Positions 8,684 through 57,567 are shown, counted from the whole stretch's first letter. The stretch is DNA of 63,949 nt, filler included, from Vicugna vicugna (GCA_013265495.1; 79 parts of 76 records of this genome joined end to end with filler, not necessarily neighbours in it), one strand, 5' to 3'. Program-made: numbers and translations. The notes: generated by a model from the letters alone, not told the origin.

Positions 8684-9902
8684 ACAGTTATTCCTAGGTA
8701 GATGATGTAGTTTAAACTCCTTCACTGCACTTAGAGAGGCACTGGATATTACTTGGTTTACAGCTCAACCCCCACCTTCGCTCAAAGCCCAGCCTAGGAG
8801 AACACTCAAGGAAGTCAAGCTAAGGGATTCTACTAGATCCCTGGTGCTGCTGTTAGTTGGAGGAGCCTCCCCACACTCAGGAAACGAGAACAATTCTTCG
8901 CACGTGTGCTGGTGGTGTGGAAACTGAGTCCACACATTTTTCCTGGGGCACAGGTATTCCTAGGTTGGAGGATGTAGTTTAAACACCTCCACATCCCATT
9001 GATAGGCACTCGCTAATACTTCGTTTTAGAGCCCAACCTCCAATTTCTCCCGCAATCCTGGCAGGGCAAGCCATCACTTAATACAAGCTAAGGGATTTTA
9101 TTGAACCTAGATGCTGCTGTCACAATGAGGAACTTCCCAACACTCAGGACTCCGGAGACACTCTTGTGTGTGGGGGAGGTGTGCATCCCCAATCCACGCA
9201 GATGAATGGTGACACAGGTGTTCCCGGGTAGGGGAGTTCCCTAAGTAATTCCTCAGTCAATCGGTTGGCACAAGATTCTACTTGGCCTCCAAGCACAACC
9301 CTCAGCNNNNNNNNNNNNNNNNNNNNNNNNNNNNNNNNNNNNNNNNNNNNNNNNNNNNNNNNNNNNNNNNNNNNNNNNNNNNNNNNNNNNNNNNNNNNNN
9401 NNNNNNNNNNNNNNNNNNNNNNNNNNNNNNNNNNNNNNNNNNNNNNNNNNNNNNNNNNNNNNNNNNNNNNNNNNNNNNNNNNNNNNNNNNNNNNNNNNNN
9501 NNNNNNNNNNNNNNNNNNNNNNNNNNNNNNTGTTGCTTCTTGGACTTCAAGCCCAAACCCCACTTTCCCCCACACTCCAGCCTCGGCATGCCATCAGGGA
9601 AGACAAGCTTTGGGATTCTATTAGAACCCAGGCGCTGCTGTCAGTTGGAGGAGTCTCCCCAAACTCAGGATACCTGAACAAATCTTTATGTGTATGATGG
9701 TTTTGGGGATACATAGTCCACGCAACTTTATGGGGGCACAGGTGTTCCCAGGAAGGGAATGTACTTTAAACACCTCCACTGCCCATAGAGAGGCACTCGC
9801 TTTTACTTGGCATTAGCGCCCAACCCCCACCTTCGTTCCAAGCCGGTCCTTGGAAATCACACAGGGAAATCAACCTAAGGGATCCTATTAGATCCCAGAT
9901 GC
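8684..9902 (+). repeat. SatB: ~267-bp satellite with divergent monomers
   Basis: GCTGCTGT.AGTTGGAGGA.CCTCCCCACACTCAGGA at 8846, 9113 (spacing 267) and 9633. Confidence 0.9.
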
Positions 9903-10204
9903 NNNNNNNNNNNNNNNNNNNNNNNNNNNNNNNNNNNNNNNNNNNNTTAATTAATTAANNNNNNNNNNNNNNNNNNNNNNNNNNNNNNNNNNNNNNNNNN
10001 NNCTACCTTGGATTTGTATGGATAAGTGAAGCAGTTTGCTAAGAACAAAAGACCAGGTTAGAATACAGGCTGGTGTAGCTCAGCAGGTTATCCTGAGCCA
10101 GCGCTGTGACAGAGGGCGGGGCCTTCGGGAAAGGGGAGGGTCAAGGGGGAGGGGGGTCCTACCCTCCCTGAGCTGACACTTTCATGGCAAACACCTTCAC
10201 CAGG

Positions 10205-10557
10205 TGAAGAATTTGGAGTTTCTTCTAAGAAGAGTGGATTTGAAAAGTCCTAAAAGCGCGGGAGTGACACAATCCCATTTGTCTCAAGTAAGGGAGAACG
10301 GCTGTGGGGCCACTTGGGAGACTCGTGAGTCCAGGTGGGCAGTGTTGGTGGCTTCACTTGAGCGGTGGGGCGGTCAGTGAGTAAAAGCGAACAGATTTTA
10401 GGCATGTTTAGATGGTAAAAAGGACAGGATGAATGCTGTCTGTGAAGGTAGGATGAAGTAAGGCACAGGTTTCTGGGTGGATTCATGAGGTAAATGATGG
10501 TCCTGCTTTGCTCTGTGGAGGGAAAGCTACAGAGGGAGCTCTGGGGGAAAACTGATG
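10205..10557 (-). mobile_element. LINE-2 fragment
   Basis: G-rich L2-type motifs (GTCCAGGTGGGCAGTGTTGGTGGCTT, GATTTTAGGCATGTTTAGATGGTAAAAAGGACAGGA, AGGTTTCTGG...ATGATGGT). Confidence 0.55.
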
Positions 10558-10657
10558 NNNNNNNNNNNNNNNNNNNNNNNNNNNNNNNNNNNNNNNNNNN
10601 NTTAATTAATTAANNNNNNNNNNNNNNNNNNNNNNNNNNNNNNNNNNNNNNNNNNNN

Positions 10658-11477
10658 GAAGTCCAGGAAATACCTTCCCTGACCTTGGGGAAGCAGCCTC
10701 GGCCACAGGGATATCCTGTAAACACGCCTAACATTCCCTGGCACAGAGACATTAGGAAAACCCTCAGGGGAGACGAGCTTAGGCATTCCGTTAGAACCCA
10801 CGGGATGCCGACCGTTGGTGGAACCTCACCACGCTCAGGATTCCGGAACCATTGTCAGTGCATGGGGGAGCTCGAGAGACAACTCCACGCAGCTCTCTTC
10901 ATTCACAGGTGTTCCCTNNNNNNNNNNNNNNNNNNNNNNNNNNNNNNNNNNNNNNNNNNNNNNNNNNNNNNNNNNNNNNNNNNNNNNNNNNNNNNNNNNN
11001 NNNNNNNNNNNNNNNNNNNNNNNNNNNNNNNNNNNNNNNNNNNNNNNNNNNNNNNNNNNNNNNNNNNNNNNNNNNNGAACCTCCCCACGCTCAGGATTCC
11101 GGAACCATTGTCAGTGCGAGGGGGAGCTCGAGAGACAACTCCACGCAGCTCTCTTCAGTCACAGGTGTTCCCTGTTCGGGGAAGTCCGGGAAAGAGCTCC
11201 CCTGAACTTGAGGAGACAGCCTTGGGCACTGGGATATCCTGTAAACCACCCTAGCATTCCCTGGCACAGAGAAATTTGGAAAACCCTCAGGGGCGACGAG
11301 CTTAGGCAGTCCGTTAGATCCGACGTGCTGACGACCGTTGATGGAACCTCCCCACGCTCAGGATTCCGGAAAAATTGTCAGTGCGTGGGGGAGCTCTAGA
11401 GACAACTTCACGCAGATCTCTTCAGTCACAGGAGTTCCCTATTCGGCTAAGTCCGGGAAATAACTTCCCTAACCTTG
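10658..11477 (+). repeat. SatA: GC-rich 267-268-bp satellite
   Basis: Repeated GGAACCTCCCCACGCTCAGGATTCCGGAACCATTGTCAGTGCGTGGGGGAGCTCGAGAGACAACTCC. Confidence 0.95.
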
Positions 11478-11577
11478 NNNNNNNNNNNNNNNNNNNNNNN
11501 NNNNNNNNNNNNNNNNNNNNNTTAATTAATTAANNNNNNNNNNNNNNNNNNNNNNNNNNNNNNNNNNNNNNNNNNNN

Positions 11578-12107
11578 GTTTGAGGAATCCGTGATGCATG
11601 AAACATGTTCGTAGTAAGGAATTCCATGGTTATGTAAACAATGCAAATTACATGTGCAGTGGTGAGATTTCGCTCAAAGAGGTTTTTCTGGGGCAAAATG
11701 TCTGATTTTAGAACCTGGTGATAGGAAAAACCTATGAAGTCAGAGTAAATATGTCTAAATTTATATACGCCTTGTTCGGAGGATGAAAGGTCAGTAATCC
11801 ACATGCTCACAAGTCAGAAATGCATGATTGCCAAATCCNNNNNNNNNNNNNNNNNNNNNNNNNNNNNNNNNNNNNNNNNNNNNNNNNNNNNNNNNNNNNN
11901 NNNNNNNNNNNNNNNNNNNNNNNNNNNNNNNNNNNNNNNNNNNNNNNNNNNNNNNNNNNNNNNNNNNNNNNNNNNNNNNNNNNNNNNNNNNNNNNNNNNN
12001 NNNNNNNNNNNNNNNNNNNNNNNNNNNNNNNNTCTAGATGAATCCTTTTATAGAAGTTAAAAATTAGTAAACCACATGCTCTCAATTCAAAATGCATGTT
12101 TGTCAAA
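11578..12107 (+). repeat. SatC: AT-rich ~246-bp monomer / ~740-bp trimer satellite
   Basis: Matches 61372-62284 (GAGGAATCCGTGATGCATG, CATGGTTATGTAAACAATG, AATCCACATGCTCACAA). Confidence 0.9.
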
Positions 12108-12375
12108 NNNNNNNNNNNNNNNNNNNNNNNNNNNNNNNNNNNNNNNNNNNNTTAATTAATTAANNNNNNNNNNNNNNNNNNNNNNNNNNNNNNNNNNNNN
12201 NNNNNNNCAGAAATCAACCGACGGCTATGTATTGCGGGTGTGCCCATATTACCGGAACAATATTTTCCCTTAGAGGTTCTCTGTGTACTGTGAAATGTTA
12301 GAAAGTTTAAAGACACGTGAAATATTCAACTGAAAATGGACACACTTCCCTCCGTTGCTACAGTGCATACAGACC

Positions 12376-12610
12376 TGAACAAAAGGAAAGAGGGAAGAAC
12401 AAAGGCTGATGGGATGCTAGTGGGTAGAATCACTTTTAACTTAGGAACCTCTCGTCGGATGCAGCCCCTCCCCCAACACTGACAAGATGCAGCAGCCTTT
12501 GGGGATGGCAGTTAGCGGTTGGATTCCAGGTGGAATGTTGGTGTGTACCGCGAGGCTTGTTGTGGCTGGTGGATCCTAGGTAACCGGGCAGAGTTCTGTG
12601 GGTAGATCAG
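12376..12610. repeat. Multicopy segment of unknown class, copy 1 (paralog at 33354-33584)
   Basis: TGAACAAAAGGAAAGAGGGAAGAA...TTAGGAACCTCTCGTCGGATGCAGCCCCTCCCCCA...GGGCAGAGTTCTGTGGGT.GATCA is shared. Confidence 0.9.
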
Positions 12611-13207
12611 TGCGATGGAGGTGCTGCCGCCCTCTGTGGAGCTTGGTTTAGGTCTTTGGTCAAGGTAGCTGTGTCAGTTCGAGATACTGCTGCTGCCCAA
12701 AGACCTGAGTTCACGGGTCAGTTTCCAGAAATTGAAAGGGCAGACAGTGGAAGATCTGCCTGTCTTCAGCTTACTGGAGAGGCTCCGAGGTCCTTTCAGA
12801 CTTGCCCAGTCCTGTTGAAGTCGACTTTATGGGAGACACGAAGAGAAGCTGGCCGAAAATATGGCTGCACGGATTGAGGAGAGATGCGAACACATTGATG
12901 AGAGATGTTCTGCTACAATAGAGAATACTGGCCTGGAGACAGCTGTAGAGGATAGCAGGCTCGAAAGGCATTCATAGAGTAGGCTCGAAAGGCATTCATG
13001 AGACATATTGATCCTCGCTGATANNNNNNNNNNNNNNNNNNNNNNNNNNNNNNNNNNNNNNNNNNNNTTAATTAATTAANNNNNNNNNNNNNNNNNNNNN
13101 NNNNNNNNNNNNNNNNNNNNNNNATCAAATTCAAGCTTAGAGCACAATTTTTCAGTTATACATGAATACACACGTACATTCATTGTCACATTCTCTTTTG
13201 CTGTGTT

Positions 13208-13646: not shown

Positions 13647-14615
13647 ATACTATATTCTGCATTCCGTATTCTATATTCCATATTCTGTGTTATATATTCT
13701 ATATTATAAATAAATATATTATAAATACTATATTCAATATTATGTATTCTATAATCTAAATTCTCTGTTCTGCATTGCATTTCTAAATCCTGAGTTCTAT
13801 ATTCCCTTTTATATATAATATATTTTGTGTTTTTCATTCTATATTCTATGTTCTATATTCTGCATTCCGTATTCTATATTCTATATTCTGGGTTCTACAT
13901 TCTATACTCAAAATTCTACATTCAGTATTCTGTATTCTATATTCAAAATAATGTATTCTGCATTCCATGTTCTAAATTCTACTTTATTCTATATTCTATA
14001 TTCTGTGTTCTTCATTCTATATTCTAAATTCTATATTCAGTATTATGTATTCTATATTCTAAATTCTGTGTTCTGAATTCCATATTCTAAATTCTGGCTT
14101 CTCTATTCTCTATTCTCTATTCTATATTCTGTGTTCTACATTCTATATTCTAAATTCTATATAAAGTATTCCGTATTTTATATTGTATATTCTGTGTTCT
14201 TCATTCTATATTCTAAATTCTATATTCAGTATTCTGTATTCTATATTCTGAATTCTGTGTTCTGCATTCCATGTTCTAAATTTTTTGTTCTATATTCTCT
14301 ATTCTCTATTCTCTATTCTGTGTTCTACATCCTATATTCTGAACTCAGCATTATGTATTCTATATTCTTAATTCTGAGTTGTACATTCTATATTCTAAAT
14401 TCTAACTTCAGGTTTCTGTATTCCATATTCTAAATTCTGTGTTCTGAATTCCATGTTCTTAATTCGGGGTTCTGTCTTCTGTTTTTCATATTCTATATTC
14501 TGTGTTCTATTTTCTATATTCTGTATTCTATATTCAGAATTCCGTATACTTTATTCTGTATTCTGTGTCCTACATTCTATATTCTAATTTCTATATTCAG
14601 TATTCCGTATTCTTT
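13647..14615 (+). repeat. SatE: (ATTCTAT)n-based satellite
   Basis: Continuous degenerate heptamers with TGTGTTCTGCATTCCATGTTCTAAATT landmarks. Confidence 0.95.
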
Positions 14616-14715
14616 NNNNNNNNNNNNNNNNNNNNNNNNNNNNNNNNNNNNNNNNNNNNTTAATTAATTAANNNNNNNNNNNNNNNNNNNNNNNNNNNNN
14701 NNNNNNNNNNNNNNN

Positions 14716-14772
14716 AGTATTCCGTATTTTATATTGTATATTCTGTGTTCTTCATTCTATATTCTAAATTCT
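14716..14772 (+). repeat. SatE 57-bp scaffold, identical to 14165-14221
   Basis: Direct sequence identity by inspection. Confidence 0.9.
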
Positions 14773-14872: not shown

Positions 14873-15529
14873 CAGAGAACTCTTGTGACTGAAGAGAGCT
14901 GCGTGGAGTTGTCTCTTCAGCTCCACCACGCACTGACAATAGTTCAGGAATCCTGAGCGTGGGAAGTTCCACCAACGGTCGGTAGCGCGTGGGTTCTAAC
15001 GGAATGCCTAAGCTCGCCTCCCCTGAGGGTTTTCCTAATGTTTCTGTGCCAGGGAATGCTAGGGGTGATTGCAGGATATCCCGGTGACCGAAGCTGTCTC
15101 CCCAAGTTCAGAGAAGTTTTTTATCGAACTTCCCCAATCAGGGAACTCCTGTGACTGAAGAGAGCTGCGTGGAGTTGTCTCTCGAGATCCCCCACGCACT
15201 GACAATGGTTCCGGAATCCTGAGCGTGGGGAGGTTCCACAAACGGTCGGCAGCTCGTGGGTTATAACGCAATGCCTAAGCTTGTGTCCCCTGAGGGTTTT
15301 CCTAATTTCTCTGTGCCAGGGAATGCTAGGGGTGATTGCAGGATATCCCAGGGTCCGAGGCTGCCTCCCCAAGGTCAGGGAAGGTATTTCTCGGACTTCC
15401 CCGAACAGGGAACACCTGTGACTGAAGATAGCTGCGTGGAGTTGTCTCTCGAGCTCCCCCACGCACTGACAATGGTTCTGGACTCCTGAGCGTTCAGAGG
15501 ATCCACCTACGGTCGACAGCGCTTGGGTT
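14873..15529 (-). repeat. SatA, about 2.5 monomers
   Basis: AAC.CCTGTGACTGAAGA at 15144 and 15411 (period 267). Confidence 0.95.
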
Positions 15530-22187: not shown

Positions 22188-22215
22188 GTAAAAACTTTTA
22201 TACTTTTATCTTGAA

Positions 22216-22304
22216 TTTTTTTTTAATGAGGGTACTGGGAATTTAGCCTAGGACCTCATGCACTGCTAAGCAGGCACTCTGCCACTGAGCTAGACCCTCC
22301 CCCC
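22216..22304 (-). mobile_element. tRNA-derived SINE, vic-1-like (camelid), with TTGAATT target-site duplication
   Basis: Minus strand GGGGGAGGGTCTAGCTCAGTGGCAGAGTGCCTGCTTAGCAGTGCATGAGGTCCTAGGCTAAATTCCCAGTACCCTCATTAAAA: A box TAGCTCAGTGG, degenerate B box, A-tail; TTGAATT at 22211 and 22305. Confidence 0.8.
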
Positions 22305-22494: not shown

Positions 22495-23225
22495 TGTGGA
22501 GAGACGTTCATTCATCCAGCACAAAGGGAACGAGTTGCAAGGGAAATAATTACTGTGGTTTCTCAGTCTGTTCCCTAGTGCCCGGTGGAATTTCCTACGG
22601 TTTGCACTGTAAAACTGAGTTGAAGTTAGTTCCTCCCCATATATATGTAAGGACTGGAGTTTGCAACTGAATAGAAACTTTATGTTCCCTTCAAGTTAGG
22701 TGAAGGACGGCTTTAACACCCACTTATCTCTCAGAACTGAGCATGTGTAGAGACGTTCGTTCATCCAGCAAAAAGGGAGCGGGTTGTAGGAGAAACACTT
22801 ACTCTGTATTCTCAGTCTGTATCCTAGTGCCGGTTTGTAGTTCCTGCAATTTGCACTGTAAAACCGAGTTGCAGCTTGTACCTTCCCATATATATGTATG
22901 GTGTGGGGTTTGCAACTGAAAAGAAACTTTGTGTTCGTTTCAAGCTAGATGTAGGACGGCTTTCACACACACATATCTCTCAGAACTGAGCATGTGGAGA
23001 GACGTTCGTTCATCCAGCACAAAGGGAACGGGTTACAGGTGAAACACTTACTCTGGTTTCTCAGTCTGCTTCCTAGTGCCGCTTTGAAGTTCCTGCAGTT
23101 TTCACTGTAAAACCGAGTTGGAGCTTGTACCTCCCCATATATATGTATGGACTGGAGTCTGCAACTGAAGAGAAAACAATGTAGGTGACGGACGGCTTTC
23201 ACACACACTTATCTCTTAGAACTGA
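22495..23225 (-). repeat. SatD, about 3 monomers
   Basis: TGTG.AGAGACGTTC.TTCATCCAGC at 22495, 22744 and 22993 (period 249). Confidence 0.95.
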
Positions 23226-26726: not shown

Positions 26727-27206
26727 TCAGAGTCAGTCCTAGGGAAACACTCAGGGATTACAAACTAAGGGTTTTTACTAGAATCCACAAGCTTCTGTCA
26801 CCTGAAATTGCCAGCCCACACTCAGGATAGCAGAAAACTTCTTCATGTGTGTTCCGGTAGTGGGGATACACAGTCCACGCTTTTTTCATGGAGCACAGGT
26901 ATTCCCATGTTGTGGGTTTTTCGTTAATAACCTCCAAATCCCATGGAGAAGCACTCGCTAATACTTGGATTTAGAGCCCAACCCACCCGTTCCCCAGCAC
27001 TCCGTATCAGGCAACCAAACAGGGTAGACAAGTTAAGCGATTTTATAAGAACCAAGGCCCTGCTNNNNNNNNNNNNNNNNNNNNNNNNGAGGAGGCTGTC
27101 TCAGGATAACTGTGCAAGTGTTCGTGTGTGTGCTGGAGGCGTGGAAACAGACTCCACGCATATATATGGGTGCACAGGTGTTCCCAGGTTAGGGATGTAG
27201 TTTAAA
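26727..27206 (+). repeat. SatB
   Basis: CCCACACTCAGGA, GCACTCGCTAATACTTGG.TTTAGAGCCCAAC, GCACAGGTGTTCCCAGGTTAGGGATGTAGTTTAAA. Confidence 0.88.
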
Positions 27207-27306: not shown

Positions 27307-28488
27307 GGGATGCCTGAGCTGGTCTCCCCTGAGGGTTTCCCTAATGTCTCTTTGCCAGGGAATTTTAGGGGGGGTTTGCAGTAAATCCCAGTGACAGAGG
27401 CTGCCTCCCCAAAGGTAGGGAAGGTATTTCTCAGACTTTCCCGAACAGGGAACACCTGTGACTGAAGAGAGCTGCGTGGAGTTGTCTCTCGAGCTCCCCC
27501 ACGCACTGACAATGGTTCCGGAATCCTGAGCGTGGGGAGGTTCCACCAACGGTCGGCAGCGCGTGGGTTCTAACGGGATGCCTGAGCTCGTCTCCCCTGA
27601 GTGTTTTCCTAAAGTCTCTGTGCCAGGGAATGCTAGGGGGGGTGTGCAGGAATTCCCAGTGACAGAGGCTTCTTCCCCAAGTTCAGGGAAGATATTTCTC
27701 GGACTTCCTCGAACAGGGAACACCTGTGACTGAAGAGAGCTGCGTGGAGTTGTCTCTCGAGCTCCCCCACGCACTGACAATGGTTCCGGAATCCTGAGCG
27801 TGGGGAGGTTCCACCAACGGTCGGCAGCGCGTAGGTTCTACCGGGATGCCTGAGCTGGTCTCCCCTTAGGGTTTCCCTAATGTCTCTGTGCCAGGGAATG
27901 CTAGGGGAGGTTTGCAGAAAATCCCAGTGACAGAGGCTGCCTCCCCAAGGTCAGGGAAATTATTTCTCGGTCTTCCCCGAACAGGGAACACCTGTGACTG
28001 AAGAGAGCTGCGTGGAGTTGTCTCTNNNNNNNNNNNNNNNNNNNNNNNNNNNNNNNNNNNNNNNNNNNNNNNNNNNNNNNNNNNNNNNNNNNNNNNNNNN
28101 NNNNNNNNNNNNNNNNNNNNNNNNNNNNNNNNNNNNNNNNNNNNNNNNNNNNNNNNNNNNNNNNNNNNNNNNNNNNNNNNNNNNNNNNNNNNNNNNNNNN
28201 NNNNNNNNNNNNNNNNNNNNNNNNNNTATCGGACTTCCTCGAACAGGGAACACCTGTGAGTGAAGAGAGCTGCGTGGAGTTGTCTCTCGAGCTCCCCCAC
28301 GCACTGACAATGGTTCCGGAATCCTGAGAGTGGGGAGGTTCCACCAACGGTCGGCAGCGCGTGGGTTCTAACGGTATGCCTGAGCTCGTCTCCCCTGAGG
28401 TTTTCCCTAATTTTCTGTGCCAGGGAATGCAAGGGGGAGTTTTCAGGAAATCCCAATGACAGAGGCTGCCTCCCCAAGGTCAGGGAAG
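27307..28488 (-). repeat. SatA
   Basis: AACACCTGTGACTG at 27451, 27719 and 27987 (period 268). Confidence 0.95.
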
Positions 28489-30647: not shown

Positions 30648-31665
30648 GTCTCTGTGCCAGGGAATGCTAGGGGGGTTTCCAGGATTTCCCAGAGACAGAG
30701 GATGCCTCTCCAAGGTCAGGGAATTTATTTCTCCGAATTCCAAGGACAGGGAACACCTGTGACTGAAGAGGGCTGCGTGGAGTTGTCTCTCGAGCTCCCC
30801 CAAGCACTGAAAATGGTTCCGGAATCCTGAGCGTGGGGAGGTTCCACCAACGGTCGGCAGCGCGTGTGTTCTAACGGAATGCGTAATCTCGTCTCCCCTG
30901 AGGGTTTTCCTAATGTCTCTGGGCCAGGGAATACTAGGGGTGATTNNNNNNNNNNNNNNNNNNNNNNNNNNNNNNNNNNNNNNNNNNNNNNNNNNNNNNN
31001 NNNNNNNNNNNNNNNNNNNNNNNNNNNNNNNNNNNNNNNNNNNNNNNNNNNNNNNNNNNNNNNNNNNNNNNNNNNNNNNNNNNNNNNNNNNNNNNNNNNN
31101 NNNNNNNNNNNNNNNNNNNNNNNNNNNNNNNNNNNNNNNNNNNNNNNNNNNNNNNNNNNNNNNNNNNNNNNNNNNNNNNNNNTGATTGCAGGATTTCCCA
31201 GTGACCGAGGCTGCCTCCCCAAGGTCAGGGAAGGTATTTCTCGGACTTCCCCGAACAGGGAGCACCTGTGACTGAAGAGAGCTGCGTGGATTTGTCTCTC
31301 GAGCTCCCCCACGCACTGACATTTGTTTCGGAATCCTGAGCGTGGGGATTTTCCACCAACGGTCGGCAGCTCGTGGGTTCAAACGGAATGCATAATCTTG
31401 TCTCCCCTGAGTGTTTTCATAATGTCTCTGTGCCAGGGAATGCTTGGGGTGATTGCAGGATATCCCAGTGTTCGAGGCTGCCTCCCCAAAGTCAGGGAAT
31501 GTATTTCTCGGACTTCCCCGAACAGTGAACACCTGTGACAGAAGAGATCTGCGTGGAGTTGTCCCTCGAGCTCCAGAATGCACTGACAATGTTTCCGGAA
31601 TCGTGAGCTTGGGGAGGTTGCACCAAAGTTCGTCAGCGCGTTGGTTCAAACAGAATGCCTAAGCT
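30648..31665 (-). repeat. SatA
   Basis: SatA consensus motifs in reverse complement. Confidence 0.95.
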
Positions 31666-34340: not shown

Positions 34341-35166
34341 GGAGTTGTCTCTCGAGCTCTCCAACGCACTGACAATGTTTCCGGATTCCTGAGCGTGGGG
34401 AGGTTATACCATCGGTCGGTAGCACGTGGGTTCTAACGGAAGGCCTAAGCTCGTCTACGCTGAGGGTTTTCCTAATGTCTCTGTGCCAGGGAATACTTCG
34501 GGTGATTGCAGGATATCCCAGTGACCGAGGTTGCCTCCCAAGTTCAGGGAAGTTATTTCCCGGAATTCCCCGAACAGGGAACACCTGTGACTGATGAGAG
34601 CTGCGTGGAGTTGTCTCGCGAGTTCCCTCACGCACTGACAATGGTTCCGGATTCCTGAGCGTGGGGAGGTTCCACCGACTGTCGGCAGCGCGTGGGTTCT
34701 AACGAAATGCCTAAAATAAACTCGTCTCCCCTGAGGGTTTTCCTAATGTCTCTGTGCCAGGGAATGCTAGGGGTGATTGCAGACTATCCCAGTGACGGAG
34801 GCTGCCTCCCAAGTTCAGTGAAGTTATTTCCCGGACTTCCCCGAACAGGGAAAAACTGTGACTGAAGGAAGATGCGTGGAGTTGTCTCTCGAGCTCCCCC
34901 ACGCACTGAAATTGGTTCCGGAATCCTGAGCGTGGGGAGGTTCCACCAAATGTCGGCAGCGTGTGGGTTCAAACGGAATGCCTAAGCTCGTCTCCCCTGT
35001 GGTTTTTCCTAATGTCTCTCTCTCAGGGAATGCTAGGGGTGATTGCAGGATATCCCAGTGACCGAGGCTGCCTCCTCAATGTCAGGGAAGGTATTTCTCG
35101 GACTTCTCCGAACAGAGGACACTGTGAATGGAGAGAGCTGCGTGGAGTTGTCTCTCGAGCTCCCCC
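34341..35166 (-). repeat. SatA, about 3 monomers
   Basis: SatA motifs repeated at ~266-bp spacing. Confidence 0.95.
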
Positions 35167-36197: not shown

Positions 36198-37048
36198 GCA
36201 TGCCATCTGGGAAGACAAGGTAAGGGATACTATTAGAACCCACGCGCTGCTATCATTTGGAAGAACCTCCCCTCAATCAGCATACCTTAAAAAGGCTGTG
36301 TGTTGTACTGGATGTGGGGAAATAGAGTCCACGCATAATTATGGGGGCAGAGTTGTTCACAGGTTAGGGATGTTATTTAACACCTTTAATGCCCATAGAG
36401 ATGCACTCGATATTACATGTTTTTAGAGCCCAACCCCCAACATTGCTCAAACGCGGCCTAGGAAGACACTCAGGGAAGTCAAGCTGAGGGATACTTTAAT
36501 ATCCCAGGTGCTGCTGTAAGTTGGAGGATCCTCCCCACATTCAAGACACGAGAACAATTCTTCGTCAGTTTGCTGGAGGTGTGAAAACAGAACCCACGCA
36601 TATTACTTTGGGCACCGGTATTCGCAGATTGAGGGTTGTAGGTAAAACACCTGCATAGCACATGGAGATGAACTCGCTAATACTTGGTTTAAGAGCCCAA
36701 ACCTCACCTGCCTCCACCCTCAGGCCTAGGCAAACCATGCAGAAATCAAGCTAAGGGATTACTTTAGAACTCACGGAATGCTCTCAGTTGGAGGAACTTC
36801 CCCCACTCAGGATTCCAGAACCCAACTTTGTGTGGGGGAGGTGTGAATCCACACCCCACGCAGATGAATGGGGGAGAGGAACTTCCCCCACTCAGGTTTC
36901 CAGAAACCAACTTTGTGTGTTGGAGGTGTGGATCCCCACCCCACGCAGATGAATGGGGGCACAGCTCTTCCCCATTTGGGAGAAGCGTTTTAAGCACTTC
37001 CTCAGTCCATTTGTGAGCACACGCAGCTAATTGAACTCCAAGAGTAAC
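36198..37048 (+). repeat. SatB with an internal 85-bp tandem duplication (36791-36960)
   Basis: SatB motifs; GAGGAACTTCCCCCACTCAGG...CAGATGAATGGGGG at 36791 and 36876. Confidence 0.9.
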
Positions 37049-38559: not shown

Positions 38560-39054
38560 GCTGTCAGTTGGAGGAACTTCCCTGCACTCAGAATTCCGGA
38601 ACACTTTCTTAGGAGTGGGAGAGATGTGCAGCCCCACTCCACCAAGATGAATGGAGGAAAAGGTGTTCCGTTTAGGGAGAAGTCCTCAAAGTACTTCCAC
38701 AGTGGATCAGGGGGCACTCACTGCTACTTGGCCTCCAAGCACAACCCCCAGATTTCCCTCATGGCGTGGCCTAAAGTAACACTCAGGGAACATAAGCTAA
38801 GGTATACTAATAGAACCCAGGTGCTGCTGTCAGTTTGAGGAACCTCCCCACACTCAGAATATCAGAAAAATTTCGCGTGTGTGCTGAATGTAGGGAAAGA
38901 GTTAATACATCTTTCAGGGGGCACATTTAATCCATGGTTGTGGGTTGTAGGTTAAAAACCCCCATCCCATGGATAGGCTCTCGCTAATAATTGGTTTAGA
39001 ACCCAACCCCCACTTTCCCCCACTCTCCAGCCTAGGCATGCCATCAGGGAAGAC
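38560..39054 (+). repeat. SatB
   Basis: CTGTCAGTT.GAGGAAC at 38561 and ~38827. Confidence 0.9.
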
Positions 39055-40812: not shown

Positions 40813-41478
40813 GCTTAGGCATTCCGTTAGAACCCACGCGCTGCCGACCGTTGGTTTGACCTCCCCACGCTCAGCGTTCTGGAAACATTGTCAGTGCGTG
40901 GCGGAGCTCGAGAGCAAACTCCACGCAGCTCTCTTCAGTCACAAGTGTTCCCTGTTCGAGGAAGTCCGAGAAATACCTTCCCTGACCTTGGGGAGGCAGC
41001 CTCTGTCACTGGGAATTCCTGCAAAACCACCTAGCATTCCCTGGCACAGAGACATTAGGAAAGCCCTCAGGGGAGACCAGCTCAGAACCAGCTCAGCCAT
41101 TCCGTTGAAACCCTCGCGCTGCCGACCGTTGGTTGAACCTCGCCATGCTCAGGGTTCCGGAAACAATGTCAGTGGGTGGGGGAGCTCGAGAGAAAACTCC
41201 ACGCAGCTCTCTTCAGTCACAGGTGTTCCCTGTCCGGGGAAGTCCGAGAAATACCTTCCCTGACCTTGGGGAGGCAGCCTCTGTCACTGGGAATTCCTGC
41301 AAAACCACCTAGCATTCCCTGGCACAGAGATATTAAAAAAAACCCTCAGGGGGACCAGCTCAGCCATTTCGTATTAACCCACGCGCTGCCGACCGTTGGT
41401 TGAACCTCGCCATGCTCAGGGTTCCGGAAACAATGTCAGTGGGTGGGGGAGCTCGAGAGAAAAATCCACGCAGCTCTC
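40813..41478 (+). repeat. SatA
   Basis: About 2.5 monomers sharing array-specific variants (GGGAATTCCTGCAAAACCACC, CCAGCTCAGCC). Confidence 0.95.
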
Positions 41479-41578: not shown

Positions 41579-42089
41579 AAACACCTCCTCAAACCATAGA
41601 GAGTTCATCGAAATACTTGGTTTAGGAGCCGAAAACACAATTTCCCCCGCATTCCCGCCTAGGCTTTCCATCAGGGAAGACAAGCAAAGGGATTCAATTA
41701 GAACCCAGGCGCTGCTGTCAGTTGGAGGAACTTCCCTGCACTCAGAATTCCAGAACACATTCTTAGGTGTGGGAGAGATGTGCAGCCCCACTGCACCCAG
41801 ATGAATGGAGGAAAAGGTGTTCCGTTTAGNNNNNNNNNNNNNNNNNNNNNNNNNNNNNNNNNNNNNNNNNNNNNNNNNNNNNNNNNNNNNNNNNNNNNNN
41901 NNNNNNNNNNNNNNNNNNNNNNNNNNNNNNNNNNNNNNNNNNNNNNNNNNNNNNNNNNNNNNNNNNNNNNNNNNNNNNNNNNNNNNNNNNNNNNNNNNNN
42001 NNNNNNNNNNNNNNNNNNNNNNNCCACACTCAGAACACCAGAAAAATTCTTCGCGTGTGTGCTGGATGTAGGGAAATAGTCAAAACATA
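41579..42089 (+). repeat. SatB
   Basis: 41715-41829 and 42024-42089 closely match the two monomers at 38560-38910. Confidence 0.9.
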
Positions 42090-42980: not shown

Positions 42981-43783
42981 GACACTCTAGGCATGACTCC
43001 CAGGTAGACAGGCACACAGAGACACCCTAGGATGCAGCTCCATGTAGATAGGCACACAGAGACACTCTAGGCTGCACTCCCAGGTAGAGAGGCACACAGA
43101 GACACTCTAGGATGCACTCCCAGGTAGACAGGCACACAGANNNNNNNNNNNNNNNNNNNNNNNNNNNNNNNNNNNNNNNNNNNNNNNNNNNNNNNNNNNN
43201 NNNNNNNNNNNNNNNNNNNNNNNNNNNNNNNNNNNNNNNNNNNNNNNNNNNNNNNNNNNNNNNNNNNNNNNNNNNNNNNNNNNNNNNNNNNNNNNNNNNN
43301 NNNNNNNNNNNNNNNNNNNNNNNNNNNNNNNNNNNNNNNNNNNNNNNNNNNNNNNNNNNNNNNNNNNNNNNNNNNNNNNNNNNNNNNNNNNNNNNNNNNN
43401 NNNNNNNNNNNNNNNNNNNNNNNNNNNNNNNNNNNNNNNNNNNNNNCAGGTACACAGGCACTCAGAGACACTCTAGGCTGCACTTCCAGGTAGACAGGCA
43501 CACAGAGACATTTTAGGATGCACTCCCAGGTGGACAAGCAGAGAGAGAAGCACACAGAGACTCTCTAGGCTGCTCTCCCAGGTAGACAGGCCGACAGAGA
43601 CAGCCTAGGCTGCTCTCCCAGTTAGAAAGGCACAGAGACATTTAGGCAGCACTCCCAGGTAGACAGGCACACAGACACACTGTAGGCTGCATTCCCAGGT
43701 AGACAGGCAGGGAGACAAGCACACAGAGACACTCTAGTCTGCACTCCCAGGTACACAGGCACAGAGAGACAGTCTAGGCGGCA
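42981..43783 (+). repeat. 40-bp minisatellite (GACACTCTAGGCTGCACTCCCAGGTAGACAGGCACACAGA)n
   Basis: Units start at 42981, 43021, 43061 and 43101; the array continues after the gap with occasional longer variant units. Confidence 0.95.
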
Positions 43784-44403: not shown

Positions 44404-44630
44404 GCGCGTGGGTTCTAACGGAAAGCCTAAGCTCATCTCCCCTGAGGTATTTCCTAATATCTCTGTGCCAGGGAACGCTAGGTGGGTTTGTAGGATATCC
44501 CAGTGTCAAAGGCTGCCTCCCCAAGTTCAGGGAAGGTATTTCTCGGACTTCCCCGAACAAGGAACACCTGTGACTGAAGAGAGCTCTGTGGAGTTGTCTC
44601 TCGAGCTCCCCCACGCACTGACAATGGTTC
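44404..44630 (-). repeat. SatA
   Basis: SatA consensus. Confidence 0.95.
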
Positions 44631-44730: not shown

Positions 44731-45218
44731 GGAGGTTCCACCAACGGTCGGCAGCGCTTTGGTTCTAACGGAATGCCTAAGCTCGTCTCCCCTGAGGGTT
44801 TTCCTAATGTGTCTGTGCCAGGGAATGCTACGGGGGTTTGCAGGTTATCCCAGTGTCAGAGGCTGACTCCCCAAAGTAAGGGAAGGTATTTCTCGGACTT
44901 CCCCGAACAGGGAACACCTGTGACTGGAGAGAGCTGCGTGGAATGGTCTCTCGCGCACCCCCACGCACTGACAATGGTTCCAGAATCCTGCGCGTGGGGA
45001 GGTTCCACCAACGGTCGGCAGCGCGTGGGTTCTAACGGAAAGCCTAAGCTCGTCTCCCCTGATGGTTTTCCTAATGTCTCTGTGCCTGGGAATGCTAGGG
45101 GGGTTTGCAGGATATCCCAGTGACAAAGGCTGCCAACCCAATGTCAGGGAATTTTTTACTCGGACTTCCTCGTACAGGGAACAATTGTGACTGAAGAGAG
45201 CTTCGTGGAGTTGTCTCT
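44731..45218 (-). repeat. SatA
   Basis: GGAGGTTCCACCAACGGTCGGCAGCG at 44731 and 44998 (period 267). Confidence 0.95.
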
Positions 45219-45318: not shown

Positions 45319-46162
45319 TGTATTCTACATTCTATATTCTAAATTTTATATTAAGTATTCGGTTTTATATACTCTAAATTCTGTGTTCTGCATTCCATGA
45401 TCTAAACTCTGCGTTCTTTATTCTGTTTTCCATATTCTATATTTTGTGTTCTAAATTCTATATTCTGAATACAATATTCTGCATTACGAATTCAACATAC
45501 AAATTCTGTGTTCTACATTCTATATTCTAAATTCGATATTTAGTATCCTGTATTCTATATTCTAAATTCTGTGTTCTGCATTCCATGTTCTAAATTCTGG
45601 GTTCTATATTCTCTATTCCATATTCTATATTTCGTGTTCATCATTCTATATTCTATATTCTATATTCTGCATTCCACTATATTCTATGCGTTCTGCATTG
45701 TATATTCTAAATTCTATATTCAGTATTCTGTATTCTATAATCTAAATTCTGTGTTCTGCATTCGATGTTCTATATTCAGGTTTCTATATTCTCTATTCTA
45801 TTTTCTATATTCTGTGTTCTATATTCTATATTCTAAATTCAATATTCAGTATAATATATTCTATGTTCTAATTCTCTGTTCTACACTCTGTATTCTAAAT
45901 CCTATATTCAGTATTCTGTATTCTCTATTCTTAATTCTCTGTTGTGCATTTCATGTTTTCAATTCTGGGTTTTGTATTCTGTTTTCCATATTCTATATTC
46001 TGTGTTCTATATTCTATGTTCTGTATTGTATATTCTGCATTCCGTATTCTATATTCTATATTCTGTGTTCTACATTCTATATTCTAAATTGTGTATTCAG
46101 TATTCCGTATTCTGTTTTCTATACTCTGTGTTCTATATTCTATATTCTAAATTTATATTCAN
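45319..46162 (+). repeat. SatE
   Basis: Degenerate (ATTCTAT)n. Confidence 0.93.
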
Positions 46163-47199: not shown

Positions 47200-48651
47200 A
47201 GCCTCAGTCACTGGGATATCCTGCAAACCCACCTAGCATTCCCTACACAGAGACATTAGGAAAATTCTCAGGGGAGACGAGGTTAGGCATTCCATTAAAA
47301 CTCACTCGCTGCCGACCGTTGGTGGAACTTCCCCACGCTCATGATTCCAGAACCATTGTCAGTGCGTGGGGGAGCTCGAGAGGCAACTCCACGCAGCTCT
47401 CTTCAGTCACAGGTGTTCCCTGTTCGCGGAAGTCCGAGAAATACTTTCCATGTGCTTGGGGAGGCAGCCTCTGACACTAGGATATCCTGCAAACCTCCCT
47501 AGCATTCCCTGGCACAGAGACATTAGGAAAACCCTCAGCGGAGACGAGCTTAGGCTTTCCGTTAGAACCCACGCGCTGCCGAACGTTGGTGGAACCTCCC
47601 CACGCTCAGGATTCCGGAACNNNNNNNNNNNNNNNNNNNNNNNNNNNNNNNNNNNNNNNNNNNNNNNNNNNNNNNNNNNNNNNNNNNNNNNNNNNNNNNN
47701 NNNNNNNNNNNNNNNNNNNNNNNNNNNNNNNNNNNNNNNNNNNNNNNNNNNNNNNNNNNNNNNNNNNNNNNNNNNNNNNNNNNNNNNNNNNNNNNNNNNN
47801 NNNNNNNNNNNNNNNNNNNNNNNNNNNNNNNNNNNNNNNNNNNNNNNNNNNNNNNNNNNNNNNNNNNNNNNNNNNNNNNNNNNNNNNNNNNNNNNNNNNN
47901 NNNNNNNNNNNNNNNNNNNNNNNNNNNNNNNNNNNNNNNNNNNNNNNNNNNNNNNNNNNNNNNNNNNNNNNNNNNNNNNNNNNNNNNNNNNNNNNNNNNN
48001 NNNNNNNNNNNNNNNNNNNNNNNNNNNNNNNNNNNNNNNNNNNNNNNNNNNNNNNNNNNNNNNNNNNNNNNNNNNNNNNNNNNNNNNNNNNNNNNNNNNN
48101 NNNNNNNNNNNNNNNNNNNNNNNNNNNNNNNNNNNNNNNNNNNNNNNNNNNNNNNNNNNNNNNNNNNNNNNNNNNNNNNNNNNNNNNNNNNNNNNNNNNN
48201 NNNNNNNNNNNNNNNNNNNNNNNNNNNNNNNNNNNNNNNNNNNNNNNNNNNNNNNNNNNNNNNNNNNNNNNNNNNNNNNNNNNNNNNNNNNNNNNNNNNN
48301 NNNNNNNNNNNNNNNNNNNNNNNNNNNNNNNNNNNNNNNNNNNNNNNNNNNNNNNNNNNNNNNNNNNNNNNNNNNNNNNNNNNNNNNNNNNNNNNNNNNN
48401 NNNNNNNNNNNNNNNNNNNNNNNNNNNNNNNNNNNNNNNNNNNNNNNNNNNNNTCTTCAGTCACAGGTGTTCCCTGTGCGGGGAAGTCCGAGAAAAACCT
48501 TCCCTGAACTTGGGGAGGCAGCGTCTGTCACTGGGATATCCTGCAAACCCCAGTAGCATTCCCTGGTACAGAGATATTAGAAAAATCCTCAGGGAAGACG
48601 AGCTTCGGCATTCTGTTAAAACCCATGCGATGTCGACCGTGGCTGGAACCT
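47200..48651 (+). repeat. SatA (gapped)
   Basis: SatA consensus on both sides of the gap. Confidence 0.95.
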
Positions 48652-51385: not shown

Positions 51386-51485
51386 NNNNNNNNNNNNNNN
51401 NNNNNNNNNNNNNNNNNNNNNNNNNNNNNTTAATTAATTAANNNNNNNNNNNNNNNNNNNNNNNNNNNNNNNNNNNNNNNNNNNN

Positions 51486-53917: not shown

Positions 53918-54682
53918 CCATATATATGTATGGAGTGGAGATTGCAATTGAAAAGAAACTTTTTTGTTCCCTTCAAACTAGGTGAAGGACGGCTTTATCA
54001 CACACTTATCTCTCAGAACTGAACATGTGGAGAGAAGTTCGTTCATCCAGCACAAAGAAAACGGGTTGCAGAGGAAACACTTACTCTGGTTTCTCAGTCT
54101 GTTTCCTAGTGCCGGTTTGAAGTCCGTGCAGTTTTCACTGTAAAACCGAGTTGGNNNNNNNNNNNNNNNNNNNNNNNNNNNNNNNNNNNNNNNNNNNNNN
54201 NNNNNNNNNNNNNNNNNNNNNNNNNNNNNNNNNNNNNNNNNNNNNNNNNNNNNNNNNNNNNNNNNNNNNNNNNNNNNNNNNNNNNNNNNNNNNNNNNNNN
54301 NNNNNNNNNNNNNNNNNNNNNNNNNNNNNNNNNNNNNNNNNNNNNNNNNNNNNNNNNNNNNNNNNNNNNNNNNNNNNNNNNNNNNNNNNNNNNNNNNNNN
54401 NNNNNNNNNNNNNNNNNNNNNNNNNNNNNNNNNNNNNNNNNNNNNNNNNNNNNNNNNNNNNNNNNNNNNNNNNNNNNNNNNNNNNNNNNNNNNNNNNNNN
54501 NNNNNNNNNNNNNNNNNNNNNNNNNNNNNNNNNNNNNNNNNNNNNNNNNNNNNNNNNNNNNNNNNNNNNNNNNNNNNNNNNNNNNNNNNNNNNNNNTTTG
54601 AAGTGCCTGCCGTTTTCACTGTAAAACCGATTTGGAACCAATACCTCCCCATATATATGTATGGAGTGGAGTTTGCAACTGA
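53918..54682 (-). repeat. SatD (gapped)
   Basis: CCATATATATGTATGGAGTGGAG, CAGTTTTCACTGTAAAACCGAGTTGG. Confidence 0.92.
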
Positions 54683-55745: not shown

Positions 55746-55752
55746 TTAACCC

Positions 55753-56055
55753 TGTCAGTGGCACGATATCATATACACAGAAATACGGTGTGGAGAGCAG
55801 CAGAGCAGTTCTCTTTTTATTGATTCTTAGAAAAAGGGTTTATATAGGACATTCACAATGACTCACATAACATCTAACTTATAACAATGTTAATAATCTT
55901 AAACTATTTATGTCCTCATGCTCCTGCAGTAAGCACAGGATGTTAAATGATCAAGGATTGTTTTAAAGTTCATCACGGAACTTCATTAAGTAGGCCATCT
56001 CTTATCCAGCTGTCTGTGCCTGTCTTAGGTTGTCCTCCTCTGAGGATCTTACACA
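55753..56055 (-). mobile_element. ~300-bp solo LTR (TG...CA) inside L1 sequence
   Basis: Minus strand TGTGTAAGATCCTC...CCTATATAAACCC...TCAATAAAAAG...CCACTGACA; homologous to 25118-25408. Confidence 0.75.
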
Positions 56056-56202
56056 TAATGGTGTAACATATGCAAATCAATCAATTGTGATACACCATAT
56101 CANNNNNNNNNNNNNNNNNNNNNNNNNNNNNNNNNNNNNNNNNNNNTTAATTAATTAANNNNNNNNNNNNNNNNNNNNNNNNNNNNNNNNNNNNNNNNNN
56201 NN

Positions 56203-57042
56203 CCCACGCTCATTATTCCGGAAAAATTGTCAGTGCGTGGGGAGCTCGAGCGTCAACTCCACGTAGCTCTCTTCAGTCACAGGTGTTCCCTGTTAGGGAA
56301 GTCCGAGAAATAACTTCCCTGACAAAAGGGAGGCAGCCTTGACACTGGGATATCCTGCAAACCCCCATAGCATTCCCTGGAACAGAGACATTAGGAAAAC
56401 ACTCAGGGGAGACGAGCTTAGGCATTCCGTTTGAACCCACGCGCTACCAACCTTTGGTGGAACCTCCCCACGCTCAAGATTCTGGAACAATTGTCAGTGC
56501 GTGGGGAGCTCGAGAGACAAATCCACGCAGCTCTCTTCAGTCACAGGTGTTCCCTGTTCGAGGAAGTCCGAGAAATACCTTCCCTTACTTTGGGGAGTCA
56601 GCCTCTGTCACTGGGATATCCTGCAAACCCCCTTAGCATTCCCTGGCACAGAGAAATTAGGAAAACCCTCAGGGGAGACGAGCTTAGGCATTCCGTTAGA
56701 ACCCACGCGCTGCCGACCGTTCGTGGAACCTCCCCAAGCTCAGGATTCCGGAAATATTGTCAGTGCGTGTGGGAGATCGAGAGACAACTCCATGCAGCTC
56801 TTTTCAGTCACAGGTGTTCCCTGTTCACGGAAGTCCGAGAAAAAACTTCCCTGACATTGGGGAGGCAGCCTCTGTCTCTGGGATATCCTGCAAACCCCCC
56901 TAGCATTCCCTGGCACAGAGACATTAGGAAAACCCTCAGGGGAGACGAACATAGGCATTCCGTTAGACCCACACGCTCCATTGGTGGAACCTCCCTTAGC
57001 TTAGGATTCCGGAACCATTGTCAGTGCGTGGGGGAGCTCGAG
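56203..57042 (+). repeat. SatA, about 3 monomers
   Basis: SatA consensus. Confidence 0.95.
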
Positions 57043-57142
57043 NNNNNNNNNNNNNNNNNNNNNNNNNNNNNNNNNNNNNNNNNNNNTTAATTAATTAANN
57101 NNNNNNNNNNNNNNNNNNNNNNNNNNNNNNNNNNNNNNNNNN

Positions 57143-57567
57143 AGAGCTGCGTGGAATTTCCTCTCGAGATCCCCCACGCACTGACAATGTGTGCGGAATC
57201 CTGAGCGTGCGGAGGTTCCACCAACGGTCGGCATCGTGTGGGTTCTAACGGAATGCCTAAGTTCGTCTCCCCTGAGGATTTTCCTAATATCCCTGTGCCA
57301 GGGAATGCTAGGGGGGATTGCAGGATTTCCCAGTGACAGAGGTTGCCTCCCCAAGGTCAGGGAATGTATTTCACGGACTTCCCCGAACGGGGAAGACCTG
57401 TGACTTAAAAGAGATGCGTGAAGTTGTCTCTCGAGCTCCCCCACGCACTGACAACGGCAGAATCCTGATCGTGGGGAGGTAACTCCACAGGTCGGCAGCG
57501 CGTGGGTTCTAACAGAATGACGAAGCTCGTCTCCCCTGAGGGTTTTCCTAATTTCCCTGTGCCAGGG
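57143..57567 (-). repeat. SatA
   Basis: SatA consensus. Confidence 0.95.

Follow-up and report, generated by a model that had tools for sequence, protein, structure and literature searches.

SatA and SatB, two abundant tandem repeats of the Vicugna vicugna genome, belong to one 267-bp satellite superfamily and are related over their full length. We put at roughly 0.7 the probability that they are two camelid branches that differ in the unit being copied, which would be a single monomer in SatA and a block of several monomers in SatB. The relationship is ordinary in kind and apparently undescribed so far for camelids: in the literature that we searched, which lay outside subscription journals and repeat databases, no paper stated a kinship between SatA and SatB or between 267-bp and 248-bp repeats. 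Term searches of the VicPac3.1 paper (PMC6598621) gave no mention of satellites, and those of PMC9547437 and bioRxiv 2026.05.25.727640 gave nothing on these repeats.

Distribution of the satellites

The window analysed is a 63,949-nt stretch of the assembly GCA_013265495.1. Positions 8684-57567 are not an array: the window is stitched from 79 unplaced scaffolds, each 57-1,452 bp long and separated from the next by an artificial 100-base spacer; because the scaffolds are unplaced, their order carries no signal of position or layering. Between these positions SatA comprises 15 segments (7,171 bp) on 11 scaffolds and SatB 8 segments (3,114 bp) on 5 scaffolds (Table 1). The SatB sample amounts to 17 monomer pieces, and its longest scaffold is 1.2 kb. 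Together with two shorter repeats, SatC and SatD, the families account for 35% of the window's called bases. Rfam and ARAGORN searches returned nothing within the satellites, and the SatA and SatB consensuses have no internal sub-repeat (best self-match 0.33).

Table 1. Satellite segments in the window, by family
Family	Position	Strand	Content	Basis or remark
SatB	8684..9306	+	types Y, Z, W in order (phases 0,1,2)	consensus alignment, order analysis, placed reads
SatB	9531..9902	+	types X, Y (phases 3,0)	shares scaffold with 8684-9306; second Y 78% like first Y
SatB	26727..27064	+	types W (end), X	high-copy variant in raw reads
SatB	27089..27206	+	type Y start	shares scaffold with 26727-27064
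SatB	36198..37048	+	types X (end), Y, Z, W	W with internal 85-bp duplication at 36791-36959
SatB	38560..39054	+	types W, X	VpaSat16 match (25-nt exact, 39013-39037); matches high-copy read variant
SatB	41579..41829	+	X/Z-like monomer, then W	W 94% identical to W in 38560-39054
SatB	42024..42089	+	type X start	shares scaffold with 41579-41829
SatA	10658..10917	+		segment call, profile search
SatA	11077..11477	+		segment call
SatA	14873..15529	-	2.5 monomers	segment call
SatA	27307..28025	-	268-bp variant, 2.7 monomers	segment call, tree
SatA	28227..28488	-		shares scaffold with 27307-28025
SatA	30648..30945	-		segment call
SatA	31183..31665	-		segment call
SatA	34341..35166	-	3.1 monomers	segment call
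SatA	40813..41478	+	distinct sub-variant, one monomer 278 bp	consensus alignment, tree
SatA	44404..44630	-		segment call
SatA	44731..45218	-		segment call
SatA	47200..47620	+		segment call
SatA	48454..48651	+		segment call
SatA	56203..57042	+	3.2 monomers	segment call
SatA	57143..57567	-		segment call
SatD	7889..8583	+	248/249-bp satellite	remote relative of SatB
SatD	22495..23225	-		by eye, matches 248-bp Lama glama candidate centromere repeat (Melters et al. 2013); SatB profile matches three successive monomers
SatD	53918..54682	-	two pieces, 53918-54154 and 54597-54682	first 30 nt of second piece identical to Melters llama repeat
SatC	61372..62284	+	~247/249-bp, AT-rich	longest of 15 segments; SatD relative
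SatC	begin 11578, 12033, 16890, 17362, 17830, 18211, 25509, 26360			other segments
SatC	begin 29137, 30003, 48752, 49491, 51486, 52103			further segments

SatA and SatB are homologous over the whole monomer

The initial annotation had proposed that the two repeats share a period of about 267 bp and colinear motifs, and both points hold. Tandem periods are 264-271 bp in SatA and 264-267 bp in SatB, and the two consensuses, of 267 and 268 bp and built independently of each other, can be aligned along their full length, with identity at 184 of 271 columns (68%) and 7 gap columns. The alignment score is 216, compared with a mean of -23 and a maximum of 22.5 for 500 dinucleotide shuffles (z=20). 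Every full 27-column block holds 14-23 matches, and since each third of SatB matches SatA by itself (0/300 shuffles for each), the likeness does not reside in one short motif. A tree of the 36 monomer pieces of at least 150 bp, out of 55, parts SatA from SatB with 100/100 support.

Identity between monomers averages 87% within SatA (449 pairs), 65% within SatB (87 pairs) and 55% between the families (423 pairs), in keeping with the earlier description of SatB as divergent. SatA had been called very uniform; it is more uniform than SatB, in a comparison that draws on monomers and reads for SatB and on window monomers for SatA, but only moderately so, at 93% to its consensus. The reported difference in CpG content is likewise real, with 12.2 CpGs per 267 bp in SatA and 5.1 in SatB (observed/expected 0.61 vs 0.32).

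Order among SatB monomers

These differences had been explained by layering: a young SatA core would be bordered, within one (peri)centromeric or short-arm region, by SatB as an old, CpG-depleted and decayed layer, much as monomeric alpha-satellite surrounds active arrays. The low identity among SatB monomers speaks for this scenario, as do their longer end branches in the tree (0.11-0.23 vs 0.03-0.09 in SatA) and a CpG observed/expected ratio that is not only lower than that of SatA but equal to the non-satellite background of the window (0.32 vs 0.34). Most reads placed on the SatB locus at 8684-9902 (74,339 of 96,929) are also less than 90% alike to it. Against the scenario stand the order of the SatB monomers, their high-copy variants and junctions, a published seven-monomer unit and the pattern of CpG differences, and we think it quite improbable. 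What stands of the layering proposal is the other half, SatA as a derived and more homogeneous branch, which is reasonably supported.

SatB monomers fall into types, with three clades supported at 96/95, 96/88 and 99/96, and the types follow one another in a recurring order, which the best fit gives as W-X-Y-Z. The period-4 contrast of 0.105 was reached by 0/150 shuffles of order within scaffolds; the corresponding counts are 12/150 for period 2, 20/150 for period 3 and 0/60 for period 5 (contrast 0.092). Monomers of the same phase are 75% identical (22 pairs) vs 64% for other phases (91 pairs), and copies of a unit on two scaffolds are 94% and 88% alike while neighbouring monomers are 50-78% alike. 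In its ordered types and in the likeness of its unit copies SatB has, in this small sample, two of the properties of a higher-order satellite. No single period fits all of SatB. At 41579 the monomer preceding W shares 77-82% identity with X and 71-73% with Z; X also runs into W at joints in the reads, one of them seen in about 1,180 reads; and the published unit has seven monomers. Between scaffolds, monomers of the same phase reach only 72-77% identity, and some of the SatB divergence therefore reflects real age between arrays.

The raw reads indicate how many such copies there are. In one Hi-C run, a data type with uneven coverage and possible duplicates, 96,929 of 12,836,656 reads (0.76%) were placed on 8684-9902; the 1.94 Gb of sequence read gave a maximum depth of about 29,000. 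This copy departs from the read majority at many places. The six loose-end consensuses listed, of 3,640-9,095 reads each and an agreement of 0.74-0.93 (five of the six at 81-93%), have counterparts on other SatB scaffolds of the window, with 28-30 of 30 positions the same or, in one case, 24/24. Four of them match 26727-27064 (30/30, 29/30, 28/30 and 24/24). Two of those listed span monomer junctions, and 9,095 reads have a loose end whose sequence is that of the junction at 41730-41759. Thousands of reads bear the exact SatB junctions of the window, which speaks against a decayed layer. Further points against such a layer are that 0/16 scaffolds bearing either family carry both, the scaffolds being short, and that the published 7-mer comes from loci which, according to PMC13751797, were chosen for strong tandem self-alignment. 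SatB is therefore probably built largely from multi-unit repeats with a set order, of which thousands of similar copies exist, and not from decayed relics.

CpG content and the SatA branch

The SatA portion of the tree is star-like, with a long stem of 0.31. No recurring order was seen among SatA monomers; the best near-full-length pair is 93.5% identical, and its neighbours are 88% identical. Under a root assumed from similarity and length, the outgroup agrees with SatB at 34 columns and with SatA at 21 (p=0.10). Derivation of SatA from one particular SatB type was not seen: SatA is about equally similar to all four types and attaches outside SatB.

At 6 of the 13 CpG sites of SatA, SatB carries 4-10 copies of TG or CA and none of the alternative form, and all 6 sites with at least four deaminated forms in SatB are one-sided in this way. 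Independent decay would be expected to give a mixture, so that CpG decay in SatB is not supported. SatD has CG at 0/13 of these sites and equals SatB at 6/13; at site 11, where SatB has CA and SatD has TG, the pattern points to an ancestral CpG. Changes on the SatA branch run 17 weak-to-strong vs 7 strong-to-weak (p=0.06; Fisher p=0.18 for the SatA vs the SatB branch); neither this count nor the outgroup count is significant by itself. On the whole, the difference in CpG content appears to stem from gain on the SatA side and not from decay on the SatB side.

The excess of transitions at SatA CpGs is only 1.6-fold, so these CpGs appear barely to decay, which would fit low germ-line methylation. 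Sequencing error was dismissed as the main source of SatA divergence, as there is no rise at segment ends (0.067, 0.083, 0.074, 0.067); the near-random transition/transversion ratio of SatA leaves some doubt on this point.

The probable 248/249-bp relatives

SatC and SatD are related to each other (score 161.5 vs a shuffle maximum of 44.5, 0/300) and remotely to SatB, a kinship that is newly reported here. The local score of the SatB and SatD consensuses is 73 vs a maximum of 45 in 300 shuffles (Gumbel p about 3e-6), and the raw monomers score 37.9 vs a null maximum of 30.2. The SatC/SatD pair is likely to be a deeper branch of the 267-bp superfamily, about 19 bp shorter.

Alternatively, the 248/249-bp and 267-bp pairs might have no relationship, or only a transposon-derived seed in common, the likeness of SatB to SatD being due to chance or partial. 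Identity in a four-way alignment is indeed only 52% between SatB and SatD and 46% between SatA and SatD, the SatD profile matched no SatA or SatB segment, and the first third of SatB was equalled by 8/300 shuffles, the other two by 0/300. Local scores of the SatA consensus with those of SatD and SatC also lie within the shuffle range (77/300 and 195/300). Nevertheless, SatB and SatD align on the same strand, and their alignment is colinear along the full monomer and keeps its register where one tandem copy meets the next; it exceeds all shuffles in two independent scoring schemes (0/300 and 0/40), and the raw monomers of SatB and of SatA each beat 40/40 shuffled sets. In addition, a search with the SatB profile returns SatD with an E value of 6e-6 and a second match at a distance of one period; the best E value among reversed decoys is 0.7. 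This alternative has little chance of being the right account.

Published camelid satellites and centromere features

Three alpaca satellites of Mendoza-Cerna et al. 2026 (PMC13751797) have lengths that are near-multiples of the monomer: VpaSat16-1836 (1,863 bp) is 7 x 266.1, VpaSat15-3718 is 14 x 265.6 and VpaSat14-1864 is 7 x 266.3. Over the opening 400 nt of the consensuses given in its supplementary Table S3, VpaSat16 resembles SatB, with SatB monomers at 266-bp spacing and a 25-nt exact match, VpaSat15 is by eye reverse-strand SatB, and VpaSat14 has only a faint likeness to it. The 1,863-bp 'monomer' of VpaSat16 is, going by its length and by these 400 nt, seven 266-bp units of SatB. The 7-mer and 14-mer lengths lend indirect support to long head-to-tail SatB arrays. 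In its available portions the paper lists VpaSat14-16 as monomers of 1.8-3.7 kb, gives no primers or FISH for them and places them among 20 'non-centromeric' candidate loci; its main text does not mention them, a 267-bp length or higher-order repeats. It also describes centromeric and short-arm satellites of camelids as largely uncatalogued and leaves centromeric loci aside.

The 248-bp repeat of Lama glama, nominated as a centromere candidate by abundance alone (2.9%; Melters et al. 2013, PMC4053949), corresponds by eye to SatD, including a 30-nt identical stretch at 54597. No higher-order structure is reported for it in the accessible part of that paper. It is 19 bp shorter than SatA and SatB and 46-52% identical to them, and the two families are likely to be its distant kin.

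With regard to role, the satellites probably serve as structural heterochromatin. SatA may be SAC-SAT, whose motif we take to be 267 bp, a length that would fit SatA or SatB. SAC-SAT is NOR-associated and specific to South American camelids (PMID 41666997, as cited in PMC13751797 and PMC13477059). The SAC-SAT paper may already state part of the SatA-SatB relationship.

A further possibility is that some or all SatB higher-order arrays are the CENP-A-bearing satellite, SatA being a non-centromeric offshoot on NOR short arms. By analogy, the higher-order organisation would be that of active primate centromeres; SatB makes up at least 0.76% of reads, and a NOR-associated satellite of presumably 267 bp exists. 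The CENP-B box has a canonical pattern of 17 bp. It has no perfect match in the 23 SatA and SatB segments, an absence compatible with centromere function; the best match in the SatB consensus has 3 mismatches, and SatA carries a similar motif, longer by one base, that is complete in 4/24 monomers. The lack of a box in SatB, the listing of VpaSat14-16 as 'non-centromeric' in PMC13751797 and the naming of the 248-bp repeat as the most abundant in llama (PMC4053949) make a centromeric SatB rather unlikely. Such a placement is compatible with two branches that differ in the copied unit, to which it adds location only.

Possible mechanism and significance

For two branches differing in the copied unit, concerted evolution would copy one monomer in SatA and higher-order units in SatB. 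Unequal exchange or gene conversion may have homogenised blocks of two, four and seven monomers in several separate SatB arrays, which would leave neighbouring monomers divergent, at 57-73% identity, and unit copies about as alike as SatA monomers. SatA would have arisen from the common ancestor along a long branch that gained GC and CpG, probably through GC-biased conversion, and would have been propagated monomer by monomer in arrays with little CpG decay.

More tentatively, and with the odds against it, all four satellites might share one ancestry in the manner of alpha-satellite, with chromosome-specific higher-order SatB arrays and the 248-bp branch competing for the centromere and SatA a CpG-gaining, weakly methylated monomeric coloniser of the NOR short arms in South American camelids. 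If so, camelids would offer a natural experiment outside primates in satellite layering and in centromere turnover without rearrangement, against a karyotype unchanged for more than 11 million years.

Reading the 1.8-3.7-kb alpaca units as 7- and 14-mers of a 266-bp monomer, linking this monomer to a homogeneous 267-bp satellite and treating both as likely kin of the 248-bp candidate centromere repeat would collapse several named repeats into one family. It would also supply definite probe sequences with which to map CENP-A and annotate complete camelid assemblies. Because related subfamilies and higher-order units are well known in primates and other mammals, the chief benefit is to research on camelids and to comparative studies of centromeres.

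Comparison with primate alpha-satellite

In primate alpha-satellite, divergent monomer types lie in fixed order and are homogenised as multi-monomer units with array-specific variants, and monomeric branches of the same superfamily adjoin the higher-order arrays. The camelid satellites differ from this in that they have no canonical CENP-B box and in that their monomeric branch, SatA, is the more homogeneous one and apparently derived. In its ordered divergent types and multi-monomer units, SatB is like alpha-satellite, the likeness drawn here being one of organisation.

One superfamily of 267-bp satellites

SatA and SatB, the two ~267-bp satellites of the window, fall in a single cluster of 23 segments by all-against-all BLAST, with SatA represented by 15 segments (7,171 bp, or 14.9% of the called sequence) and SatB by eight (3,114 bp; 6.5%). 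Consensuses built separately for each family, from 38 SatA and 17 SatB monomer pieces, align end to end with 184 of 271 columns identical and 7 gap columns, and the score of 216 compares with a maximum of 22.5 among 500 dinucleotide shuffles. The similarity extends beyond one short motif: every third of SatB matches SatA separately (0/300 shuffles each). The SatA/SatB feature is real, and the proposal of the initial annotation that they form one superfamily holds. In a monomer tree of 36 pieces of at least 150 bp (19 shorter pieces excluded), the split between them has support of 100/100.

Monomer identity is 87% within SatA (449 pairs), 65% within SatB (87 pairs) and 55% between the two (423 pairs), and the CpG observed/expected ratio is 0.61 for SatA and 0.32 for SatB, in agreement with the earlier description of SatB as divergent and with fewer CpGs. 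SatA had been called very uniform, which is slightly overstated, as its monomers are 93% identical to their consensus.

The window itself is an artificial concatenation of 79 scaffolds of 57–1,452 bp (median 781), and long-range patterns across all of it are stitching artefacts. N's account for 14,813 of 63,949 bases, and each of the 78 spacers is a 12-base stop-in-all-frames linker flanked on either side by 44 N. Because scaffold order is arbitrary, neither layers nor chromosomal position can be read from 8684–57567.

Features of the window
Feature	Positions	Remarks
SatA sub-variant	40813–41478	support 100/99; 11-bp duplication giving one 278-bp monomer
SatC	e.g. 29137–29820, 61372–62284 (of 15 segments)	AT-rich
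SatD	7889–8583, 22495–23225, 53918–54682	248/249-bp satellite
Duplication within a SatB W monomer	36791–36959	85 bp, internal, copies 92% alike
AGAATAT-type simple satellite	3209–4392, 13647–14772, 37641–38459, 45319–46161	7-bp unit with a longer period of 63 bp; makes up 6.5% of called bases
40-bp tandem repeat	42981–43783	GC-balanced, nearly without CpG; 52- and 92-bp variants
Weak Rfam tRNA match	22227–22299 (-)	35.7 bits; ARAGORN calls no tRNA here; the segment also has a direct repeat spaced 86 bp; probably a tRNA-derived SINE or pseudogene
Macrosatellite piece	12208–13023, 33354–33584	5.3-kb VpaSat08/09/11/12 short-arm macrosatellite

Probable higher-order organization of SatB

SatB had been taken for an old, decayed layer of the superfamily. 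As stated, that interpretation is not supported: its monomer types are ordered, its variants are present in high copy number, and its TG/CA forms at CpG sites are one-sided. Three monomer clades have support (W; Y; X/Z). When monomers were numbered by position within each of five scaffolds, a period of four, with the recurring order W-X-Y-Z, gave the best fit (contrast 0.105; 0/150 within-scaffold order shuffles), the corresponding shuffle counts for periods two and three being 12/150 and 20/150. A period of five gave a contrast of 0.092 (0/60 shuffles) and assigns one piece otherwise than period four does. Pairs in the same phase are 75% identical, versus 64% for other pairs, and two scaffolds have in common a W (94% identical) followed by an X (88%).

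Raw reads came from an Illumina Hi-C run (X2; 1.94 Gb) of uneven coverage, equivalent to ~0.6–0.75 genomes if a genome size of 2.6–3.25 Gb is assumed. At ≥80% identity, 96,929 of 12,836,656 reads align to 8684–9902, at depths from ~600 to 29,000, and 77% of them are <90% alike to that scaffold. Consensuses of the loose ends of reads were compared by eye, and each of the six listed, of more than 1,100, has a counterpart on another SatB scaffold in the window. Four correspond to 26727–27064 (30/30, 29/30, 28/30 and 24/24; 3,640–4,716 reads, agreement 0.87–0.93), the 30/30 match at 26801–26830 spanning a monomer junction; another equals 41730–41759 (30/30 over a junction; 9,095 reads, agreement 0.81), and another 38970–38999 (29/30; 6,369 reads, agreement 0.74). 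Given these matches, the "divergent" monomers are samples of several high-copy variants, with roughly 5,000–12,000 or more copies of each. Counted against a single tidy repeat unit are reads in which X is joined directly to W, the X-like monomer at 41579 where period four predicts Z, the 77% of reads below 90% and the uneven Hi-C coverage.

SatB has a counterpart among published alpaca satellites. Supplementary Table S3 of PMC13751797 gives lengths of 1,864 bp for VpaSat14, 3,718 bp for VpaSat15 and 1,863 bp for VpaSat16, corresponding to 7 x 266.3, 14 x 265.6 and 7 x 266.1 bp; the GenBank records given there for these three are QB059678-80. Within the first 400 nt of the VpaSat16 consensus, SatB monomers lie 266 bp apart, and VpaSat16 shares a 25-nt exact match with 39013–39037. 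VpaSat15 carries SatB on the reverse strand, as judged by eye, while the part of the VpaSat14 consensus shown has only a faint likeness. VpaSat14, VpaSat15 and VpaSat16 do not appear in the main text of PMC13751797, and neither do "267" or higher-order repeats. We consider SatB most plausibly a group of mutually diverged higher-order variants of 2, 4 or 7 monomers.

From the same series of satellites, the published VpaSat08 primer matches 12636–12655 with 2 mismatches (0/100 shuffles as good); this match, and a by-eye likeness to the start of the VpaSat11 consensus, are the basis for the macrosatellite piece in the table. Taken with the 25-nt stretch shared with VpaSat16 and the likeness of SatD to a llama repeat, the primer match identifies the source as a South American camelid.

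Probable relationship to the 248/249-bp satellites

SatC (15 segments) and SatD (four segments) each have a 249-bp consensus and are homologous to one another (60% identity; score 161.5 versus a shuffle maximum of 44.5). SatC is 37% GC, and its CpG ratio is 0.73 despite this AT-richness. Judged by eye, SatD is the candidate llama centromere repeat of Melters, for which PMC4053949 gives 248 bp and 2.9% of the genome.

The 248/249-bp pair is very probably a remote relative of SatB. A SatB profile matches SatD with an E-value of 6e-6 and yields a further hit one period off; the consensus score is 73 versus a maximum of 45 (300 shuffles; p ~3e-6), and the global score 55.5 versus 9.5 (40 rotation-free global shuffles). 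By thirds, the counts are 8, 0 and 0 of 300 shuffles, and the raw monomers of SatB and of SatA each exceed all 40 shuffled sets. Identity between SatB and SatD is just 52%, the SatD profile gives no reciprocal match to SatB, and SatA-SatD and SatA-SatC consensus scores lie inside the shuffle range.

CpG content and direction of change

The SatA consensus has 13 CpG sites; there, 47 of 141 SatB dinucleotides are TG/CA (background 15%), and at all six sites with at least four such forms they are uniformly TG or uniformly CA, which is not what independent decay in old monomers would leave. SatD, used as outgroup, has CG at 0/13 sites and agrees with SatB at six; one site (CA in SatB, TG in SatD) suggests an ancestral CpG. 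Where SatA and SatB differ, SatD sides with SatB in 34 columns, with SatA in 21 and with neither in 22 (p=0.10). Weak-to-strong versus strong-to-weak changes number 17 versus 7 on the SatA branch (p=0.06) and 7 versus 8 on the SatB branch. With counts individually weak and the root assumed, we infer that SatA gained GC and CpG along a long branch.

CpG transitions within SatA are 1.58-fold (95% CI 1.08–2.32) those at other C/G sites. Methylated germ-line DNA is expected to show a several-fold excess, far above this value, which would fit weak methylation of SatA CpGs in the germ line. Substitutions in all four long-unit satellites are transversion-rich (SatA ts/tv 182/330), with C>A as frequent per site as C>T. 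The excess occurs in shared and singleton variants alike, with no read-end trend, and part of it may be sequencing error.

No canonical CENP-B box was found. Positions 85–102 of the SatA consensus (e.g. the region of 11173–11190) resemble one, with two CpGs and one extra spacer base; the look-alike is complete in 4 of 24 SatA monomers, and chance in a GC-rich monomer can produce it.

Possible mechanism and comparison with known satellites

The homology, the difference in uniformity, the ordered types and the high-copy SatB variants point to a possible mechanism. In SatB, unequal exchange and conversion (concerted evolution) would copy whole multi-monomer units in separate arrays, whereas in SatA, concerted evolution would copy single monomers. 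SatA would be a derived branch, and the 248-bp pair would have split off earlier, losing ~19 bp.

Individual camelid members appear to be in print already, under separate names; the relationship among them and the 266-bp monomer within VpaSat15/16 were not found in the literature searched, whose coverage is incomplete. Related satellite subfamilies and higher-order units are familiar from other satellites. In kind, SatA and SatB resemble primate alpha-satellite, which likewise comprises related subfamilies and higher-order units.
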